From IMG/VR virus record IMGVR_UViG_2531839524_000011: a stretch of DNA of 38,945 bases, one strand, 5' to 3'. This stretch comes from a virus. Its lineage: Duplodnaviria > Heunggongvirae > Uroviricota > Caudoviricetes. The notes beneath the pieces were generated by a model. The model was given only the letters and a program-made list of their open reading frames with translations, did not search any database and was not told the origin of the DNA. Of this stretch, positions 3,792 to 11,885 are shown one piece after another; positions within the stretch are counted from its first letter, which is position 1; each line of letters starts with the position of its first letter. The position numbers and the translations under genes were made by a program.

Positions 3792-3991
3792 ACAAAAAGA
3801 CTTGGTTTCGCGCATACATGTGGGCGCTGGTATGCGTCCTCATTTCTATCATTCTGTATGCAGGACTACTCCCCCGAATGATTTCATCAGACAGCTCCTT
3901 CCTGGTATTGCTGGGCATTTTCATTGCCATGCTGTACCCGGCAGGCGTTGTTCGCCTTTTCAGTAAGTACATCAAGGAAATCAAACAATGA
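3788..3991 (+). CDS. Small two-TM membrane protein (possible NfeD-like partner of the SPFH protein)
   Basis: 67 aa with two hydrophobic helices (WALVCVLISIILYAGLL and FLVLLGIFIAMLYPAGVV); 4-bp overlap with the downstream SPFH gene. Confidence 0.55.
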   Translation: MNKKTWFRAYMWALVCVLISIILYAGLLPRMISSDSSFLVLLGIFIAMLYPAGVVRLFSKYIKEIKQ

Positions 3992-4818
3992 AGAAATTCA
4001 GACTCTTTCAGATTATCCCGCTTTTTGCCGCCATCCTGCTGGTTGGTTGCGATCGCGTTGAGCCAGGTAATGTGGGCATCAAAGTCAACAAACTGGGCGA
4101 CGACAAAGGCGTCGGTGAAGTGGTTGGCGTTGGCCGCTACTGGACAGGCTGGAATACAGAGGTTTACATCTTCCCGACCTTCAAACAAATGAAGACCTAC
4201 GATGAGCCGTTCAGCTTCCAGATGAGCGACGGCACAACCATCGGCTATCACATCGGTGTGACCTACAAGGTTGATCCATCCAAAGTTACCACAGTGTTTC
4301 AGACCTACCGCAAAGGCGTGGATGACATTACCGACACTGACCTGCGCCAGAAGATCGCCGATGCACTCAACCGACTGGCCAGCAAAATGACCACCGATAA
4401 GTTTATCGACGGTGGTAAGTCTGAACTGCTGGATTCAGCACTTAAAGATATTCAGGAAGAGATGACCCCCATCGGCATTCAGGTCATGAGCCTCTCTTAT
4501 GTCGGTAAACCGGAATATCCGCCAACCGTTATCGACAGCATTAACGCCAAAGTCACGGCAAACCAGAAAACCCTGCAACGTGAACAGGAAGTCAAGCAAC
4601 GCGAAGCTGAAGCCAACATGCTGCGCGCAGAAGCTGCCGGACAGGCCGATGCCATTCGCACAAAAGCCCAGGCTGAAGCCGACGCCATTCGTTTACGCGG
4701 CGAAGCTCTGCGCCAGAATCCCGGCGTTATGGAGCTGGAAGCGATCAACAAATGGAACGGCACGCTGCCGCAATACATGACCAGTAACACCGCTGTTCCG
4801 TTCGTTCCCGTGAAGTAA
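3988..4818 (+). CDS. SPFH/band-7 (stomatin-prohibitin-flotillin-HflK/C-like) lipoprotein
   Basis: 276 aa; lipobox LLVGC after the signal peptide; band-7-like core and a C-terminal coiled-coil alanine/glutamate-rich segment (QREAEANMLRAEAAGQADAIRTKAQAEADAIRLRGEAL) typical of HflC/K-like proteins. Confidence 0.75.
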   Translation: MKKFRLFQIIPLFAAILLVGCDRVEPGNVGIKVNKLGDDKGVGEVVGVGRYWTGWNTEVYIFPTFKQMKTYDEPFSFQMSDGTTIGYHIGVTYKVDPSKVTTVFQTYRKGVDDITDTDLRQKIADALNRLASKMTTDKFIDGGKSELLDSALKDIQEEMTPIGIQVMSLSYVGKPEYPPTVIDSINAKVTANQKTLQREQEVKQREAEANMLRAEAAGQADAIRTKAQAEADAIRLRGEALRQNPGVMELEAINKWNGTLPQYMTSNTAVPFVPVK

Positions 4819-4824
4819 TTAAAT

Positions 4825-4849
4825 CCGGCCAGTGAAAACCGCTGGCCGG
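4825..4849 (+). terminator. Stem-loop after the SPFH gene (weak intrinsic terminator candidate)
   Basis: ccggccag-tgaaaaccg-ctggccgg hairpin; the T-run is displaced about 15 nt downstream. Confidence 0.4.
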
Positions 4850-5185
4850 AGCAGTATCAGGATTTTTTAGTATGCCGTTCTCACAAAAAAACCGCTTGCC
4901 ATGCCGCAATCAGTCAGGTTACATTTCCGCTGCACCTCACAAAACGGGTGCCGGGTTTCGCAGCCTGCTGACTACACAAGCGCACAACCGCGCCAGCGGT
5001 TTTTTTGTGCGTACTGTATTGCCACGTTTTTTTCGCGTCAGAATTATGGCGGGGCGTACGGGGCCGACTTCGGTCGGGCCGGGTTCTTGTGTAGCCGGGA
5101 CTGCGAACCTCGTACGTCTCGCCACCCACAGTTTCGCAGCTCTGGATGGTGAGTTTTCACAACTTACTACACAAGGGGCCACACC
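4850..5185. other. GC-rich structured non-coding interval (candidate sRNA / regulatory or replication-associated element)
   Basis: No convincing ORF with an RBS; nested hairpins including gggccgac-ttcg-gtcgggcc enclosed by gcgtacg...cgtacgt (5054..5117); terminator-like ccgcgccagcggttttttt at about 4989..5007; direct repeat actacacaag at 4970 and 5166. Confidence 0.3.
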
Positions 5186-5416
5186 ATGGCAAACCGCAAA
5201 CCACACCGCGCTATCGCGGAGCGTCGTCACATCCAGACTGAAATCAACCGCAGACTTTCCCGCGCATCACGCGTCGCGCAAATCATGCACATCAATATGT
5301 TGCATGAGCGCAGCCACGCACTATCAAACATTTATTCCGCCTCTGTTTTCAGCTATCTGGCGGATGATCTGCACGAGCTTCAACAGCTCATCCAGCAGCA
5401 AAACAAACTCCATTAA
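5186..5416 (+). CDS. Hypothetical protein (76 aa)
   Basis: ORF preceded by aagggg RBS-like sequence 7 nt upstream of the ATG. Confidence 0.45.
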   Translation: MANRKPHRAIAERRHIQTEINRRLSRASRVAQIMHINMLHERSHALSNIYSASVFSYLADDLHELQQLIQQQNKLH

Positions 5417-5488
5417 TTCCTGTTCCGGGCCTTTCCTGCACCTTGCGGCGGGAGGCCTTCGCACATCTGTAACAAGAGGATTGCCGCA

Positions 5489-5854
5489 ATGATTCTCGCC
5501 AACGACTTTCTTGAATACCTGCTCAACACAGAACGTGATCTTGCCGCCCGCGTGCGTGATCGTTATGACATGTACCTGAAATCCCTGCCTGTACCGCAGC
5601 TCGCTGACGGAAAGATTGTTATTGATGGTCGCTACATGATTGACAGCCACGAGGGAAATTACAGGCTTTACCGCATTGAAGGTGGCACCCCGTCCGTTAT
5701 TGGCATTTACCAGCGCCCATCCTCTGCAATCGTCGATGTGATTGCCGACAGCATCCGCATCACACATCGCCATGCCGACACAGAAGACACCGTGCTGGAA
5801 ATTCAGCGGCTGGCTACAGTCTGCCGCGACACCCTGAATGGCATGACGAAGTAA
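5489..5854 (+). CDS. Hypothetical protein (121 aa)
   Basis: ORF immediately upstream of gene A. Confidence 0.55.
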   Translation: MILANDFLEYLLNTERDLAARVRDRYDMYLKSLPVPQLADGKIVIDGRYMIDSHEGNYRLYRIEGGTPSVIGIYQRPSSAIVDVIADSIRITHRHADTEDTVLEIQRLATVCRDTLNGMTK

Positions 5855-5860
5855 ATCACT

Positions 5861-8683
5861 ATGACGGCAGAGTACATCAGGGACTGGCAACAACCGCGCC
5901 ACGCAGTGGGGCGTGAAGGAACGGGGATCCCCACTCCTGAATCCGCGCTTTCCTCCTGGCTGGATGCCTACCGGGCAGAGAACGAGCGCCGCCAGGAAAT
6001 GGCTGATGCGGCGTTCTCCGCCACGCCGCTGGGCAACCTGATTAATAAAAGCCTGGACGCACAGGAAAAACAGGACAAAACCATCACACTGGCAGGAGAC
6101 GCCAGAAAGCAGGCACGCGGCGCGGTGGATGAAGCCATGGCCTCGCTGCGCCTGCTGCCGTCCTATCTGCGCGATCCGCTTATTCGCCACCTCTCCTTCC
6201 TGCGCAAAAAACAGGAATCTGACCGCCAGAAAGGTAAAAAGAACCAGCAGGCTGAACGCTACGCGCGCGGGACCCTGCGCAAAATATTCGAACGTCTGGA
6301 CCGCACCGACCACCGCTGGCTGACACCGGGTTATCGCGCCCTTGCCGGACGCGAACGCCTGGATGATTTGCTTTACCTCCCGCAGCTCAACAAGCACCAG
6401 ATACAGACGCTGGCCACCATGACGGCGGCGATGTTCAGCAGCACCTTCGAAAAACTCTGCGATGGCTTTGGCGCAACCGATGGCGAGCTGACCATGGATG
6501 TAACCCTGAAGGCGTATCAGATGCTGGCCCGCATGGCGTTACACCTGCACGCCATGCCTCCACATTATGACGCACTGACAACAGACAAAGACCGGAGGAA
6601 CGAACCGGACACGGAGCTGCTGCCGGGCGCAATCCTTCGCCTGACCTGTGCGGAATGGTGGAAACGCAAACTGTGGCTGTTACGTTGCGAGTGGAGAGAA
6701 GAACAACTCCGCGCCGCCTGTCTGGTTTCCAGAAAAACATCGCCCTATCTGAGCCAGGACGCGTTAAGCGAGTTTCGCGCACAGCGCGAGAAGACACGCG
6801 ATTTCCTGAAAAGTTTCATGCTGGAAAACGAAGACGGGTTCACGATTGATCTCGAGACAGTGTATTACGCGGGAGTAAGTAACCCGGTTCACCGTAAGGC
6901 AGAAATGATGGCCACCATGAAGGGACTGGAACTTCTGGCCGAAGCCCGTGGCGACAGAGCGGTGTTTCTGACTGTCACCTGCCCGTCAAAATACCACGCC
7001 ACAACAGAGAACGGTCATCCGAATCCCAAATGGAACGGGGCCACCATGCGCGACTCCAGCGATTACCTGGTTAACACGTTTTTTGCGGCTGTCCGCAAAA
7101 AACTGAACCGCGACGGTCTGCGCTGGTATGGCATCCGCACGGTGGAGCCTCACCATGACGGCACCGTGCACTGGCATATGATGGTCTTTGCTCATCCGGA
7201 AGAAATCGACACCATTGTGTCCCACACCCGCGATATTGCCATTCAGGAAGACCGCCACGAGCTGGGCGATGACATAACTCCGCGCTTTAAGGCGGAGTAC
7301 GTCGACGGCTCAAAAGGCACACCAACCAGCTACATCGCCACCTACATCGGAAAGAACCTGGACAGCCACGCCGTGGATGGCATCGACCCGAAAACGGGCA
7401 AGCCACGCGTTGACCACGAAACCGGAAAATCAATGGCCGAGAGCGTGGAGCGCGCCATCGGCTGGGCACGCCTTCACCGGGTCCGCCAGTTCCAGTTCTT
7501 TGGCATTCCCTCCCGTCAGGTGTGGCGTGAACTCCGCCGCCTTGCCAGCCAGATAGCACGCAACCCGGAAGGCCCGCAACGGCTGAAGGATGATGCAATG
7601 GATGCGGTACTCGCTGCCGCTGATGCCGGATGTTTTGCCACCTACATTGAAAAACAGGGCGGCGTACTTGTTCCACGCAAGGACTACCTGATTCGCACCG
7701 CCTACGACCTCGCCGATGAGCTGAACGATTACGGCGAACAGAGCGTACAGATTTACGGGATCTGGTCACCACTCATCGGGGAATCCTCCCGTGTGTGCAC
7801 GCATCCGGATAACTGGAAGCTGGTAAGACGCAAACCGGAAGCGAAAGACAGCGCCCGCGAAAATGGTTTTGACCTTCAGGGCGGCCCTGCCGCCCCTTGG
7901 ACTCGTGGCAATAACTGTCCCCGTGTACAGGAAACGGACAACAACGGGACAGAACAGCCGGAAGAACGGCCAGCACCGTGGCCGCAGCTTCCTGACGGCG
8001 TTGACGTGAATGAATGGATGCGCTCACTGAAACGGCACGAACGCCGGGCGCTGATGCGTTCGCTGCGTGACAAACAGGCAAAAAACAGCAGTGATGAGAT
8101 GCAGAGCTGGACACAGAGCCGCAAACAGCCGCGGCCTTTGCCTGATAACCACGAATTACTCGCTAAAGAATGGCGGGAGTCTGCTGAATCTCTCGGCCTG
8201 CATATCGGTGAACAGCAAATGCAGCACCTGTTACGGGGCGGCAGTCTGTACGTTGACGGCAGCATCATTGCACCGCAGGGATTTGAAATTGTACGCAAAC
8301 CGGATACCCGCCCGGACAGCCGAATCACGCAGCTCTGGCTGCGCCTGAGCCGTAATCACGGCGTAAGCAGCACGGAGATCCGCCATAACCCGGTCGCCAG
8401 TTATCTGGAACAGCTAGGGGCATCAGCCCCCGAAGCCGCCGCACGCCTGGCATCCACACTTCAGCAAGACCAGAACACCATGAAAACACCCGTTACCGTG
8501 CTTTCTGACATGCTGCGCGCCATCCGCGACGCAGAGCACGCGCAGAGAATCAGTGAAACTGCTGAACGCGCCCGCCGCAAAGCAGACCTGCTGCGGGGTG
8601 GCCTGACCAGCGGAAACAAAAAACAGACAGAAACGGGATTCACAAATCCCGTAAATGAGCAAAAAACGCGCCGCGATATATGA
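5861..8683 (+). CDS. A: Rolling-circle replication initiator (P2 gpA-like HUH endonuclease)
   Basis: 940 aa; HUH motif in GTVHWHMMVFAHPEE and paired catalytic tyrosines in TPTSYIATYIGKN, as in P2 A / phiX174 A-type initiators; position after the early genes. Confidence 0.9.
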   Translation: MTAEYIRDWQQPRHAVGREGTGIPTPESALSSWLDAYRAENERRQEMADAAFSATPLGNLINKSLDAQEKQDKTITLAGDARKQARGAVDEAMASLRLLPSYLRDPLIRHLSFLRKKQESDRQKGKKNQQAERYARGTLRKIFERLDRTDHRWLTPGYRALAGRERLDDLLYLPQLNKHQIQTLATMTAAMFSSTFEKLCDGFGATDGELTMDVTLKAYQMLARMALHLHAMPPHYDALTTDKDRRNEPDTELLPGAILRLTCAEWWKRKLWLLRCEWREEQLRAACLVSRKTSPYLSQDALSEFRAQREKTRDFLKSFMLENEDGFTIDLETVYYAGVSNPVHRKAEMMATMKGLELLAEARGDRAVFLTVTCPSKYHATTENGHPNPKWNGATMRDSSDYLVNTFFAAVRKKLNRDGLRWYGIRTVEPHHDGTVHWHMMVFAHPEEIDTIVSHTRDIAIQEDRHELGDDITPRFKAEYVDGSKGTPTSYIATYIGKNLDSHAVDGIDPKTGKPRVDHETGKSMAESVERAIGWARLHRVRQFQFFGIPSRQVWRELRRLASQIARNPEGPQRLKDDAMDAVLAAADAGCFATYIEKQGGVLVPRKDYLIRTAYDLADELNDYGEQSVQIYGIWSPLIGESSRVCTHPDNWKLVRRKPEAKDSARENGFDLQGGPAAPWTRGNNCPRVQETDNNGTEQPEERPAPWPQLPDGVDVNEWMRSLKRHERRALMRSLRDKQAKNSSDEMQSWTQSRKQPRPLPDNHELLAKEWRESAESLGLHIGEQQMQHLLRGGSLYVDGSIIAPQGFEIVRKPDTRPDSRITQLWLRLSRNHGVSSTEIRHNPVASYLEQLGASAPEAAARLASTLQQDQNTMKTPVTVLSDMLRAIRDAEHAQRISETAERARRKADLLRGGLTSGNKKQTETGFTNPVNEQKTRRDI

Positions 8684-8759: not shown

Positions 8760-9719
8760 ATGAAAATTTGTATCGACGACGGCTCCACCAACATCAAGCT
8801 GGCATGGACTGAGAACGGCGAACGCCGCAACGCCATCAGCCCGAACAGCTTCAAGTCGGAATGGTCTGCGCCGTTCGGCGGCACGCAGCCCGCGAACTAC
8901 ATGCTTGATGGCGTGCGCTATGGTTTTGATCCGGTCAGCGATCGCTTTGTCCAGACGACCGACACGCAATACCAGTACAGCGATGTGAATGTCATTGCCA
9001 TTCATCACGCGCTGGTCAAATCAGGCATCACGCCACAGGAGGTGGATGTGGTTGTCACCCTGCCACTGAGCGAGTATTTCGACACAAACGCACAGCCGGA
9101 CATGGCCAACATCAACCGCAAAAAAGCGAACGTTATGCGCCCGGTGGAGTACCAGAACGGCGAAGCATTCACTATCCGTAACGTGCGGGTTATGCCTGAA
9201 TCCATTCCGGCTGGCTTTAAGGCACTGGCTGACATGAGTCCGTTTGAATCCCTGCTGATTGTGGATTTGGGCGGAACCACGCTGGATGTGGCAAAGGTTC
9301 AGGGGCAACTGGCAGGTATCAGCCAGGTGTTTTGCGATCCACACGTAGGCGTTTCCCTGATGGCCGATGCCGTACTGTCGGTGATGGCCACTAACGGTAT
9401 GCGTACCAGTCACCACATCGCCAATACCATTATCGAACATCGCCATGATGAAGCCTGGCTGCGCCAGCACATCCACAATGACGCGCATTACGCCAGCCTG
9501 ATGGCGGTTATTCGTGAAAAGGAAGAAACACTGAAACAACGCGTGATCCGCGCGCTGGCGGTTTTTTCGGGTTACGGGCGGGTGATGGTTGTCGGTGGCG
9601 GGGCGGAGATTGTGGCACCCGCTATCCGCGAAGCCTGCGGAGTTAATGCGACTTTCATCGCGGATGGGGTGCCACAGTTTGCTCTGGTTAATGGGCTGTA
9701 CGCAATGGACAAGGAGTAA
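8760..9719 (+). CDS. parM: ParM/StbA-like actin-family partition ATPase
   Basis: 319 aa; MKICIDDGSTNIKLAW, YSDVNVIAIHHAL, MPESIPAG, LIVDLGGTTLD and VMVVGGGAE match the plasmid R1 ParM (StbA) signature blocks as I recall them. Confidence 0.85.
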   Translation: MKICIDDGSTNIKLAWTENGERRNAISPNSFKSEWSAPFGGTQPANYMLDGVRYGFDPVSDRFVQTTDTQYQYSDVNVIAIHHALVKSGITPQEVDVVVTLPLSEYFDTNAQPDMANINRKKANVMRPVEYQNGEAFTIRNVRVMPESIPAGFKALADMSPFESLLIVDLGGTTLDVAKVQGQLAGISQVFCDPHVGVSLMADAVLSVMATNGMRTSHHIANTIIEHRHDEAWLRQHIHNDAHYASLMAVIREKEETLKQRVIRALAVFSGYGRVMVVGGGAEIVAPAIREACGVNATFIADGVPQFALVNGLYAMDKE

Positions 9720-9723
9720 ACCA

Positions 9724-10035
9724 ATGACGACACCAACCAGACGGATAAGTTTCTATCTGAAGCCCGCCGCCGTCAAGAACGAAGGCGAAGCATGCGCCTG
9801 GCTGGACAGCCTTACACCAGAAGCCCGCAAAAGCGGCCAACGCGTGGCTTTTCTGGCCGGGCTGGCACTACTGAAAATGAATCCGGCAGATGCTTACCGA
9901 CTGGCTGCATGGGCTGATGATGAGGCGTTATCAGTGACACAAACCAGGACAGAACGCCCCGCGTCACAGCCAGTATCAACCGCACAGATAACCAGTCAGA
10001 TGGCCGGAAATATCCGGGCGTTATTTCCCGATTAG
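9724..10035 (+). CDS. parR: ParR/StbB-like partition adaptor (ribbon-helix-helix type)
   Basis: 103 aa from ATG 9724; RRISFYLKP...RVAFLAGLALLK resembles the R1 ParR N-terminus (RTIAFKLNP...RAALTAGLALYR) as recalled; immediately downstream of parM. Confidence 0.6.
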   Translation: MTTPTRRISFYLKPAAVKNEGEACAWLDSLTPEARKSGQRVAFLAGLALLKMNPADAYRLAAWADDEALSVTQTRTERPASQPVSTAQITSQMAGNIRALFPD

Positions 10036-10164: not shown

Positions 10165-10689
10165 TTATGAAAAATAATCATCATGAGAGGAAACATGCAA
10201 ATTATAATCACTCAATTGGGGAATAATCCCCCTACTCCAAAGCAACGTTTTATTTAGTCCAAGTCCATCTAATTTCATCATCCTGTTGCGCAGCGCAATG
10301 AACTCATTCTTGAAGTTATCTGCAGAGATGATTTTTGGGCAAAAACAAGAATACAATTTTCTGTTACTTACGCCACAAGCATTGGCAAGCTCATCCTCAA
10401 AATTGCTTGTTTGTTGAAATAGGTGGATTGTGTGTTTTTTCGCCTTTAATAGATTTAGGTTATTCTTAAATCTACCAAGATTCTCAATCCTATCCGTATC
10501 AAAAACCACTATAATTTCGCTATTTTCGGTTAATGCTGGCATGTATTTATTTATATTAACATTCCATAAATTAGCAATTACTATTTTCTTAATAGGATAG
10601 CCTAGCAATGTTTTGAAATCCTGAAACAATGCTTTTTCCGTATCTCCCTCAACGAGAATGATAGCAAATTTCTTAACTGCCATAATCAA
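10165..10689 (-). CDS. TOPRIM-domain protein (OLD-family C-terminal-half-like / AriB-like), 174 aa
   Basis: N-terminal ILVEGDTEK conserved glutamate followed by IIVVFDTD (DxD), the TOPRIM metal-binding signature; start overlaps the ATPase stop (ATGA); very AT-rich. Confidence 0.6.
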   Translation of the reverse strand: MIMAVKKFAIILVEGDTEKALFQDFKTLLGYPIKKIVIANLWNVNINKYMPALTENSEIIVVFDTDRIENLGRFKNNLNLLKAKKHTIHLFQQTSNFEDELANACGVSNRKLYSCFCPKIISADNFKNEFIALRNRMMKLDGLGLNKTLLWSRGIIPQLSDYNLHVSSHDDYFS

Positions 10690-11885
10690 TCCTCAAATAG
10701 CATCTCTTCGATTAATGAAACGTCAGGTATTGTTGCAAAACAGTCATTTTTTACTTTATTTAAAAGATTGCGATCATTCTTTTTATGATGTGTGGTAGCT
10801 TCAACAAAAGTGGTTAAACCATCTACTTTTTTAGTAAAAGTATATGAATGCGTAGGCAGATCTAAGCTCAAGATATCATAATTATGTGTGGTGTATATAA
10901 ATTGACCATACCTGCAAAGCTTAGATATAATCAGTGTGACCATCATTTTTTCTAATTCAGTATGAGTGAAGGCCATTTTCTCATCCAAAAAGTACACCCC
11001 ACTGCAAGGGAAATTGAACTCACGCTCTTCTATTTTATCTTCAAGCACTCCTGACAGGAGATGGGATATTTTTACTGCCTCATAAGTACCACGAGACAGT
11101 CTATCTTTATTTGTTATATCACCTTCCATATCAATAATAACTCTATCTCCATTATTGAAGACTACTGAATACCCCTGCAAATCCTCCTTTCCCTCATCAT
11201 CTTTAAGAGTGAGTCCTGAGACAGATTTAACAGTATTGTCAAAAGTTTTTAATATGCTATTAAGCACATTCTTCTTAATTCGGGATATTTTATCCGTGTT
11301 CTCTTGGTTTTCAGATAGAATGAAATGCCAACCAAGAACAAAGTCCAAATCCTCTAAATATTGGGAAAATTCTTTTGAGTTAGCGTTTTCAGTTGAAAAA
11401 AATCTATTTTGACCATTTAATTCAAACTTTTGCGCATCCCACACAGCATCCAATCTTTTGGTCGTCTTTGCGCATGATTCCGAGCTTCTTAAATCAACAG
11501 ATGCCATTGCAATTTTTTCTACAACAACAGACTCATCCATAGCCCTAAGCCAGAAACCTGCCCTAAACAAACATTTTAAATGACTCTGGAAAAAGTCAAC
11601 CTCTATATATGCAGGTTTTCTTTTGTCAGTAATTTTTAACGGTTCTGGATTAAAAACACCACTACTGAGAAAACGCAACACAGAAAGCATCACGCGACCA
11701 AGAGATGTTTTACCAGATGCATTAGCACCAGAAACGATGCAAACCTTTTTGAAGTAGAATTTTTCAAATCCATCAATGTACTCACCTTCCAGTGAGCTGT
11801 TGACCGGGGGTCTGGAGAAGCTTAAGTCAAGGATGCTATTTTCAAAGCAAAAAAGATTATCGATTCTGATTTTTGTAAAAGCCAT
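10686..11885 (-). CDS. ABC/SMC-type ATPase (OLD-family N-terminal-half-like / AriA-like), 399 aa
   Basis: Walker A GANASGKTS; ABC-signature-like LSRGTYEAV; Walker B VYFLDE; H-loop IYTTHN; AT-rich island located in the P2 tin/old slot between A/par and portal Q. Confidence 0.75.
   Translation of the reverse strand: MAFTKIRIDNLFCFENSILDLSFSRPPVNSSLEGEYIDGFEKFYFKKVCIVSGANASGKTSLGRVMLSVLRFLSSGVFNPEPLKITDKRKPAYIEVDFFQSHLKCLFRAGFWLRAMDESVVVEKIAMASVDLRSSESCAKTTKRLDAVWDAQKFELNGQNRFFSTENANSKEFSQYLEDLDFVLGWHFILSENQENTDKISRIKKNVLNSILKTFDNTVKSVSGLTLKDDEGKEDLQGYSVVFNNGDRVIIDMEGDITNKDRLSRGTYEAVKISHLLSGVLEDKIEEREFNFPCSGVYFLDEKMAFTHTELEKMMVTLIISKLCRYGQFIYTTHNYDILSLDLPTHSYTFTKKVDGLTTFVEATTHHKKNDRNLLNKVKNDCFATIPDVSLIEEMLFED

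Follow-up and report, generated by a model that had tools for sequence, protein, structure and literature searches.

The stretch of DNA analysed here, referred to as the window, comprises 38,945 nt of a virus of the class Caudoviricetes (IMG/VR record IMGVR_UViG_2531839524_000011). The element in question is the GC-rich interval at 4820-5185, which an earlier note, made from the letters alone, had singled out as structured, non-coding and possibly regulatory. The gene order of the window is integrase, C repressor, Cox and small early genes, SPFH lipoprotein, the RNA module described below, a 76-aa protein, orf121 and gene A. Judged by its sequence, the host element is a P88-like (Xuanwuvirus) prophage of the P2 family; phage P88 (Peduoviridae, genus Xuanwuvirus) is 93% identical to the window over the 800 bases compared (4702-5500). 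Within the interval, positions 4882-5185 very likely constitute an antisense-RNA immunity module of the P4/P1 type in the early operon of this prophage.

Two tandem RNA genes and the gene behind them

The whole window was scanned with the Rfam covariance models, using the curated gathering scores (isrK 50, C4 45 and c4-a1b1 46.7 bits). Exactly two families exceeded their gathering score, both inside the interval, both on the plus strand and in tandem, with E-values over the whole window of 1e-13 (C4) and 1.3e-11 (isrK). The earlier note had considered a small regulatory RNA and recommended such a scan; two of these RNAs were found, each matching its family over the full length of the model.

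The first is an IsrK-family small RNA at 4932-5006 on the plus strand (RF01394, 64.1 bits, model positions 1-77 of 77), the equivalent of the 'seqA' leader of P4; Rfam describes isrK as a family of Hfq-binding RNAs. It is composed of hairpin 1 (4932-4951), hairpin 2 (4952-4967), a single-stranded stretch and an intrinsic terminator (4986-5006). The latter was detected by a terminator scan and consists of the stem 4986-4991/4996-5001, the loop GCCA and a U7 run to 5006, with which the IsrK-like RNA ends. The IsrK helices are 89-100% paired in the relatives described below.

The second is a C4/CI-family antisense RNA gene at 5042-5129, also on the plus strand (RF01695, 77.7 bits, model positions 1-87 of 87), whose mature RNA probably extends from about 5047 to 5125. 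Its closing helix comprises 17 bp (5047-5063/5109-5125), and the long-range stem gcgtacg/cgtacgt that had been noticed before forms the middle of this helix (5054-5060/5111-5117). The UUCG-loop hairpin, likewise recognised before, is the first internal hairpin of C4 (5064-5077); according to the Rfam alignment, its exact helix is CCGAC/GUCGG at 5064-5068/5073-5077 with the loop UUCG at 5069-5072. It is followed by hairpin 2 (5078-5099) with a loop of 12 nt. The fold of the 79-nt C4 RNA has a z-score of -4.95 relative to shuffled sequences. Two terminator-like elements had also been proposed for the interval, of which the one at 4986-5006 is plausible, whereas the other plus-strand match of the scan (5069-5083) lies inside the C4 fold.

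A promoter scan placed a predicted module promoter of the sigma-70 type at 4885-4925 (plus strand), with the -35 hexamer TTGCCA (4896-4901), a spacer of 18 nt and the -10 hexamer TACATT (4920-4925). The -35 hexamer is preceded by an UP-element-like A-tract (4885-4893), the promoter ends 6 nt before position 1 of the IsrK model, and the predicted start is at about 4932. Both hexamers are invariant among 38 distinct relatives. Like other members of its family, the IsrK-like RNA is accompanied by a predicted adjacent promoter upstream and an intrinsic terminator at its 3' end. The isrK promoter of the Salmonella prophage Gifsy-1 has the same geometry, and the start of the Gifsy-1 IsrK was mapped experimentally (PMC4825925). 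By analogy, the window promoter would be the counterpart of P4 PLE and Gifsy-1 PisrK and would be active like these.

A separate promoter for C4 (TTGCCA-17-AATTAT, 5019-5047) is unlikely, because its predicted start would lie inside the C4 closing helix, its -35 hexamer reads TCGCCA in about one third of the relatives, AATTAT belongs to the consensus of the C4 model, and deletion of the isrK promoter in Gifsy-1 abolishes the downstream RNA (PMC4825925).

The first gene after C4 (5186-5416, plus strand) codes for the 76-aa protein, a homologue of the P4 epsilon helper-derepression protein, which is of the anti-repressor type. The protein matches the Pfam family PF25738 'Derepression' with 32.5 bits (cut-off 27) and is 29% identical to P4 epsilon by BLASTP (E = 4e-9); P4 epsilon itself, the archetype of the family, matches with 170 bits. 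Its ATG at 5186 is located 7 nt after a Shine-Dalgarno (SD) sequence. In the downstream proteins no Ant-type domain was found with Pfam, Derepression being the only match. Further downstream follow orf121 (5489-5854, plus strand), an open reading frame (ORF) of unknown function, and the replication gene A (5861-8683, plus strand; Pfam Phage_GPA, 436 bits). The order epsilon-like gene, orf121 and gene A is also present in the annotations of P88 and of the Citrobacter phage Shae_phiSM. A hairpin in the spacer between the epsilon-like gene and orf121 (5427-5458) was discarded, as its z-score of -0.49 is no better than that of shuffled sequences.

Complementary sites and their variation among relatives

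The exact 9-mer CTACACAAG has only three copies in the 38.9-kb window, all of them within 200 nt: two on the plus strand at 4972 and 5167, and its reverse complement at 5086-5094. The direct repeat actacacaag of the earlier note, which includes the two plus-strand copies, is present at 4971-4980 and 5166-5175, although its first coordinate had been given off by one. A second exact repeat, GTTTCGCAGC, occurs at 4955 and 5131 and is complementary to CUGCGAA at 5101-5107; like the promoter and the antisense logic, it goes beyond what had been noted before.

All these sites lie on the plus strand. In the IsrK-like RNA, the b1 target TTCGCAG (4957-4963) is exposed in the loop of hairpin 2 and the a1 target CTACACAAG (4972-4980) is single-stranded. 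In C4, the recognition element a' CUUGUGUAG (5086-5094) is part of the 12-nt loop of hairpin 2, and the recognition element b' CUGCGAA (5101-5107) forms the single-stranded joiner that connects hairpin 2 to the closing helix. Downstream of C4, the b2 target TTCGCAG (5133-5139) is found in the leader of the epsilon-like mRNA, and the a2 target CTACACAAG (5167-5175) overlaps the SD sequence AAGGGG (5173-5178), so that the composite site spans 5167-5178. The order on the strand is b1, a1, [C4: a', b'], b2, a2, antiparallel as would be expected for pairing of C4 with either flank. For a', the exact complements lie 70 nt upstream and 38 nt downstream of C4; for b', they lie 85 nt upstream and 4 nt downstream. 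Predicted duplex energies are -14.3 kcal/mol for a':a2, -11.3 for b':b2, -13.3 for a':a1 and -15.1 for b':b1. With two G.U pairs the a':a2 duplex reaches position 5177 and thus covers the SD sequence of the ORF starting at 5186. The RNA displays two features of a C4 system, namely two exposed elements complementary to target sets upstream and downstream on the same strand, and a downstream target covering the ribosome-binding site of a gene, here one of the P4 epsilon family (PF25738).

For the comparison with relatives, 80 IMG/VR loci with a gene product 89-100% identical to the 76-aa protein were collected together with P88 and Shae_phiSM, and an alignment of 38 distinct P88-like sequences was used for all covariation counts. 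With a 304-nt query, the module was also found in 1153 of 5426 complete E. coli genomes, i.e., in about a fifth. The 43 distinct upstream sequences are 90-99% identical, and their differences are concentrated in the six patches b1, a1, a', b', b2 and a2: at least three alleles are found in 26 of 48 patch columns vs. 11 of 256 other columns (Fisher p = 3e-16).

Between a1/b1 and a'/b', 100% of the cells are paired and 10 of 16 pairs have changed on both sides (147 cells), the covariation score being 0.658 compared to a shuffle mean of 0.124. By site, the paired fraction is 100% for both b1 and a1, with changes on both sides in 4 of 7 and 6 of 9 pairs, respectively. Between a'/b' and a2/b2, 97.7% of the cells are paired, 9 of 16 pairs have changed on both sides (136 cells) and the score is 0.603 (shuffle mean 0.115); here b2 is 100% paired with b', with 4 of 7 pairs changed on both sides. 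None of 500 shuffles scored as high in either test, and slid controls, in which the partner was moved by 1-3 columns, yielded 30-56% paired cells in both long-range tests. For the internal helices of IsrK and C4, 98.5% of the cells are paired and four pairs have changed on both sides, with a score of 0.086 (shuffle mean 0.071; 0 of 500 shuffles as high); the three C4 helices are 99.5-100% paired in the 38 sequences, likewise with four pairs changed on both sides. The covariation among homologues, for which the earlier note had suggested a check, is strong and concerns both the structures and the intermolecular pairing.

The sites fall into discrete types. The 'a' types include CTACACAAG, CTACAAGAG, CTAGCAAAG, CAACTACAG, CTAACAGAG, AGAGCAAAG, CAAACGAAG and CAACCAAAG, the 'b' types TTCGCAG, TTTCCAC, TTGGAAC, TTCTCAAC and TTGCAACC, and each of these occurs at all three places of the same genome. 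In total, there are at least ten a-types, at least five b-types and at least eleven a/b combinations. Discrete specificity types among nearly identical phages are what heteroimmunity predicts.

Two deviations from the regular pattern were observed. At L072:76-411 (UViG_2582580934_000004), C4 contains a 17-nt insertion that gives rise to a second copy of hairpin 2; its extra loop carries an a' of the AGAGCAAAG type beside the element's own CTACACAAG-type loop, while the targets are of the CTACACAAG type only, which makes it a natural 'dual-loop' C4. In three other relatives (L073, L074 and L079) a1 reads CAAACGTAG, the complement of a' reads CAAACGCAG (a G.U pair) and a2 reads CACACGTAG (one mismatch and a G.U pair). 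These three supply the only non-paired cells of that column in the downstream count, and their specificity type looks like an evolutionary intermediate.

The same three-way matching is present in 80 P4-like loci, with six a-types, three b-types and several combinations. No a-type is common to the P88-like and the P4-like elements among the 81 and 80 loci sampled, and cross-immunity between P88-like phages and P4-like satellites, conceivable as it is, therefore finds no support in these samples. At least two source genomes, IMG/VR 2909298281 (L011, L090) and 2671181114 (L033, L115), harbour both a P88-like prophage and a P4-like satellite, and either element has an IsrK-C4 module of its own. 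The b interaction appears to be strand-swapped between the lineages, since the P88-like target reads TT..... and in the P4-like elements the CI RNA itself reads UU...... In addition, some P4-like and lambdoid elements have a b target of exactly the same sequence as the b' of the P88 C4 (GUGGAAA), and the b' of these elements is complementary to it (window 5101-5107 vs. P88 L001, P4 L082, L083 and L089); this could be a coincidence or a hint of RNA-RNA cross-talk.

Existing annotations treat the block differently. In those inspected, 10 genome rows have no feature there, and about 33 phage records list a protein coding sequence (CDS) or nothing, but no RNA; the labels deposited for phages are 'hypothetical protein', 'transcriptional regulator', 'antirepressor', 'peptidase' and 'similar to Ash family protein'. 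Several GenBank/RefSeq records thus annotate a CDS in the interval (P88 gp13 on the minus strand; 'transcriptional regulator', 'antirepressor', 'Ash-like'), and ORFs of 71-206 aa overlap it on both strands. That the interval codes for protein, or that its repeats are operators for a DNA-binding protein, is nevertheless highly improbable. The overlapping ORFs 4872-5492 (+), 4901-5152 (+), 4914-5129 (-) and 4937-5230 (-), already dismissed as genes in the earlier note, are not conserved as frames, because close relatives carry frame-breaking indels of 1, 2 and 17 nt, and no ORF start is preceded by an SD-like sequence. The two covariance models account for the whole conserved block, and the variation is limited to patches that change as mutual reverse complements, which is predicted neither by codon constraint nor by a protein operator. 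The array of protein-binding sites considered in the earlier note is accordingly not supported, as the repeats vary in concert with a sequence inside the RNA of which they are the Watson-Crick complements. Two cases of such annotation may be mentioned: in P88 (L001:5033-5221, minus strand), gp13 is annotated on the strand opposite to the RNAs, and in the lambdoid elements L083:2146-3297, L084:2141-3292 and L085:2147-3304, an over-extended CDS of 383 aa covers the RNAs, with the Rha domain starting only after them.

Related systems and the proposed regulation

Among the closest known systems is the P4 immunity region (PLE, seqA, CI with seqB, seqC; then epsilon and alpha), which is matched by both Rfam models, with order and strand as in the window. 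In the P4 genome, the match to isrK (8692-8615) corresponds to the seqA leader and that to C4 (8507-8420) to the CI RNA, both being on the strand of the PLE operon. The CI loop and joiner are complementary to upstream and downstream sites at distances equivalent to those in the window; GTGAGAA and TTCACAGG(A) both occur upstream and downstream of CI, the latter overlapping the SD sequence. As in P4, the window unites a predicted promoter, a seqA-type leader, a CI RNA and a seqC-type site in one unit and continues as an operon with an epsilon homologue first and gene A third, the replication protein being of another family (Phage_GPA, not alpha primase). In P4 the module is followed by epsilon, two small ORFs and the alpha replication gene, in the window likewise by an epsilon-family gene and then a replication gene. 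The P4-like elements and the relatives of the window each comprise many specificity types, and P4 and the window both show b2 in the loop of a hairpin and share the start context GCCA..CAUGGC.

This start context after a2 is conserved across lineages (window 5176-5192; P4 L082 at about 8365; L083 at about 2750) and consists of the SD sequence, GCCA, a few bases and CAUGGC, which form a small 4-bp hairpin over the AUG; P4 and lambdoid phages share GGCTGCCATCATGGCTAC. At its right edge the module thus extends over the start codon.

In other respects the window differs from P4. P4-like satellites are helper-dependent, carry psu, sid, delta and alpha and lack virion genes; the window has int, C, cox and gene A, and belongs to a complete P2-like phage that has a C repressor and Cox of its own as well as virion genes. 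The epsilon homologue comes first after C4, with no kil/eta-type ORF in between and only 29% identity, the replication gene is a P2-type gene A instead of the alpha primase gene, and the spacer between IsrK and C4 measures 35 nt compared to about 108 nt in P4.

P1 and P7 are the founding examples of C4 (PMC12197685). Their immI region (c4, icd, ant) resembles the window in having an antisense RNA with two recognition elements and target sets on both sides, the downstream set covering a ribosome site that leads to an anti-repressor, and specificity differences result in heteroimmunity. The window lacks the icd and ant genes that follow c4 in P1/P7, or any homologues of them, and, unlike P1/P7, it has an intrinsic terminator and a discrete IsrK-type RNA upstream; its host is an integrating P2-like phage and not a plasmid prophage. 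Details of the P1/P7 C4 system were reportedly worked out by Citron and Schuster in 1990 and by Biere et al. in 1992.

Tandems of IsrK and C4 are also present in lambdoid phages (ST64B, mEp460, Stx2a/Stx2c phages), where they are about 70% identical over IsrK and C4, score above both thresholds and occupy an equivalent position between cII-like genes and a Rha-type anti-repressor plus replication gene, although phage family and anti-repressor family are different. Such systems in lambdoid prophages were noted by Barquist et al. 2013 (PMC3632133). Throughout the lineages examined, the gene gated by the RNA is of the anti-repressor type.

After the model of P1, P4 and Gifsy-1, the module would act as follows; the activity of the promoter, processing of the RNA, the block of translation, polarity through Rho, IsrK as a decoy and the consequences for the phage are all carried over from these systems. 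Transcription would start at about 4932 from a presumably constitutive sigma-70 promoter (4885-4925), and most transcripts would end at the terminator 4986-5006, giving an IsrK-like RNA of about 75 nt with b1 and a1. Read-through transcripts would contain C4 (about 5047-5125), which by analogy with P1 and P4 would be cut from the precursor and be stable; excision by RNase P and repression in trans are properties proposed for the C4 family. The elements a' and b' would then pair with a2 (5167-5177) and b2 (5133-5139), by which the SD sequence would be covered and translation of the epsilon-like gene blocked. The untranslated, C-rich mRNA would be terminated by Rho, and orf121 and gene A, which presumably depend on read-through from the gated region and would be co-regulated with it, would be off as well. 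The mRNA of the 76-aa gene is C-rich and G-poor (C/G = 1.75 vs. 1.06 for the window), which weakly supports the Rho step and is an indirect sign of the CI-dependent premature termination of transcription that belongs to P4-type immunity. The IsrK-like RNA, having the same sites, would compete for C4 in cis or in trans and set the switch point, which fits the result from Gifsy-1 that excess IsrK switches the anti-repressor on. Immunity specificity would reside in the a/b sequences: only a phage with matching sites would be held off by the C4 of the resident prophage, and a superinfecting relative with a different code would escape it and express its own anti-repressor. The attenuator controlling entry into the replication genes that the earlier note had envisaged comes close to the homologous P4 system and fits the layout of a terminator and an RNA-gated ribosome site before the epsilon-like gene, orf121 and gene A, but for the window we infer it from this resemblance.

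Several points weigh against this model. The c4-a1b1 motif (RF03163), which passes in Gifsy-1 at 48.1 bits, reaches only 20.9 bits in the window (4919-4971), i.e., less than the required 46.7, although a1/b1-type sites are present. The C4 copy of the window carries the private substitution T5099G, where all 37 other aligned sequences have U; it converts the closing G.U pair of hairpin 2 (5078/5099) to a G-G mismatch, and the minimum-energy fold then predicted departs from the cloverleaf, so that this copy could be slightly impaired. None of the 5426 E. coli genomes contains a 100% match, the best of the 1153 matching ones being 99.7% over the query, and T5099G could be a private mutation or a sequencing error. 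Promoter use, terminator efficiency and the processing and stability of C4 are all predicted for this element from the related systems. Each transcript would supply one decoy set (a1/b1) and C4 would arise from read-through only, so repression requires C4 to be much more stable than IsrK. Mutations of b1 in cis raised expression in Gifsy-1 (PMC4825925), and hence the upstream sites would not be a simple decoy. Finally, the model would require transcripts of the early operon to pass the terminator and C4 during lytic growth.

The leader offers a further conserved structure that may bear on the mode of control. In folds of the region, the 3' strand of the C4 closing helix (5117-5125) pairs with the downstream complement UGGUGAG (5146-5152) to form an alternative hairpin (5117-5152, plus strand) with b2 in its loop, and this hairpin and the C4 fold are mutually exclusive within one molecule. 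Equivalent hairpins with co-varying arms exist in P4 (CUAUCGCC/GGCGAUAG) and Gifsy-1 (UCACCACC/GGUGGUGA). Such exclusive structures, a C4 closing helix on the one hand and a b2-presenting hairpin on the other, together with the strong intrinsic terminator and the position ahead of gene A, would suit a purely cis-acting attenuator, in which the terminator 4986-5006 and alternative leader structures control read-through without any trans-acting RNA or immunity. We regard this as very improbable. A device acting only in cis leaves unexplained both the two target sets flanking the RNA and the many discrete specificity types among relatives that are otherwise 90-99% identical, a pattern that is the hallmark of the trans-immunity of P1/P7 and P4. 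In P4, CI acts in trans. For IsrK, action in trans was demonstrated in Gifsy-1 (PMC4825925).

The isrK-orf45-anrP locus of Gifsy-1 (Hershko-Shalev et al. 2016, PMC4825925) shows IsrK, C4, b2, an SD-overlapping a2 and an anti-repressor gene in the order of the window, with the same promoter geometry and terminator and with matches to both Rfam models. Its gated gene codes for an ORF6N-type anti-repressor and lies in a lambdoid prophage beside the Q antiterminator gene, whereas that of the window precedes replication genes. In Gifsy-1, read-through originates from the isrK promoter, the long RNA is translationally silent, translation of the anti-repressor rises more than 100-fold when IsrK is provided in trans, and a stable processed RNA, STnc1160, arises downstream of IsrK (PMC4825925). 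The published model also differs from the one preferred here in that it takes the C4 region to be a translated 'orf45' (PMC4825925). Two observations concern this locus itself. By our own mapping of the published coordinates, the compensatory mutants G28A/C162U and G31A/C159U fall exactly on b1 and b', which is direct genetic evidence for b1:b' pairing in Gifsy-1. Furthermore, 'orf45' coincides with a full-length C4-family RNA gene of 69 bits (L167, NC_010392, 34131-34214, minus strand), its first AUG being the AUGG that opens the C4 closing helix, and STnc1160 is probably the C4 homologue.

Applied to the window, this published interpretation of a homologous locus (PMC4825925) would mean that the long read-through RNA is self-inhibitory, with the middle hairpin of IsrK paired to the 'C4' region, that this region is translated as a small 'orf45'-like upstream ORF, and that C4 is not a free repressor in trans. 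The minimum-energy fold of the long window transcript (4932-5200) indeed pairs a1/b1 with a'/b' in cis, and an AUG at 5046 is positioned like the start of the Gifsy-1 orf45. The frame from this AUG, however, continues to 5492, overlapping the epsilon-like gene out of frame, and is interrupted in relatives by indels of 1, 2 and 17 nt, while the region equivalent to 'orf45' matches the C4 covariance model over its full length. Moreover, the downstream sites have no part in such a mechanism, although the covariation of a2/b2 with a'/b' is just as strict as that of a1/b1, and the Gifsy-1 authors themselves detected the stable processed STnc1160 from the region and noted the analogy to P4 CI (PMC4825925). 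Activation of this kind is thus an unlikely account of the window, and repression of the epsilon-like gene by C4 is preferred.

Neighbouring cassettes and significance of the module

The interval 4820-5185 is not one unit. Positions 4882-5185 are the RNA module, the conserved left edge of which is 4882, but 4820-4881 belong to a different cassette. The SPFH/Band-7 lipoprotein gene (3988-4818), upstream of the module, and 4820-4881 form a separate inserted cassette (3988-4881), which is present in only about 11 of 81 related loci; most relatives lack both, and their alignment begins sharply at window position 4882. The cassette has a 3' hairpin (4824-4850, plus strand), an inverted repeat with a 9-11 bp stem directly after the stop codon (fold z = -4.04), which is outside the module though inside the interval, and this 11-bp hairpin has no adjoining U-run. 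Its right arm AAAACCGCTGGCC (4835-4847) is closely similar to the start of the module AAAACCGCTTGCC (4888-4900) on the other side of the junction 4881/4882, a similarity in sequence that may mark a recombination site.

Two repeats that would suggest an antiterminator were not adopted. The repeat 4872-4899 vs. 4992-5019 (28 nt, 82% complementary) is mostly a pairing of the A-tract with the U-tract of the terminator; it fits an UP-element, and its invariance precludes a covariation test. The other, 4835-4846 vs. 4992-5003 (12/12), lies within the SPFH cassette that is absent from most relatives.

Scans of the window for tRNA and tmRNA genes found none. With regard to LexA control, the sole match to CTGT-N8-ACAG is at 7915 within gene A, and 'tactgtat' at 5011 has no second half-site. 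Directly 3' of gene A (8760-10035), this integrase-bearing prophage of the P2 type has a type II plasmid-partition pair, made up of the genes for a ParM actin-like segregation ATPase (319 aa; StbA_N, ParM_N) and a Plasmid_stab_B protein. The classic users of C4/CI, P1, P7, N15 and P4, are all able to live as plasmids. On the minus strand (10165-11885), a 399-aa ORF with an AAA_15 ATPase domain is followed by an adjacent 174-aa ORF containing an OLD-like TOPRIM domain; together they look like a split anti-phage defence pair of the OLD-family or PARIS-like kind.

Since the RNA families, their tandem arrangement and the link to P4 immunity have been published (Rfam; PMC3632133; PMC4825925), the module is not a new mechanism. 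The cassette including the epsilon homologue appears not to have been described before in a branch of the P2 family directly ahead of gene A; literature searches on C4 or IsrK in P2-like phages and on the biology of Xuanwuvirus returned nothing specific. Its high frequency in E. coli genomes and its rich set of a/b combinations likewise appear to be new to the literature. A survey of P4-like satellites names only delta/ogr as having clear homologues in P2-like phages (PMC8628076), and for this reason the link between helper and satellite through this cassette appears undescribed as well.

With the two RNAs in place, a block of 300 bp that is unannotated or mis-annotated becomes a defined regulatory device, and a branch of the P4 helper family turns out to possess a homologue of the P4 cassette for immunity and epsilon. 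The device predicts a second, RNA-based immunity layer of many specificities in P88-like prophages, which would decide superinfection, and possibly induction, of a lysogen by relatives. The variants, 90-99% identical outside the six patches, are a convenient model for the diversification of a three-site RNA recognition code.

More tentatively, and with considerable doubt, the P88-like lineage, within the family that P4 exploits as helpers, may carry P4's immunity and derepression cassette natively, with exchange between satellite and helper lineage, a second RNA lock and an arms race as its consequences. If epsilon-like proteins inactivate P2-type C repressors, lysogeny would be under a second, RNA-based lock on the phage's own anti-repressor and replication gene. 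If true, satellite and helper lineages would have exchanged the module with which P4 hijacks its helper, and the a/b diversity would reflect an arms race of co-infecting helpers and satellites, which could include cross-immunity or decoying at the RNA level.

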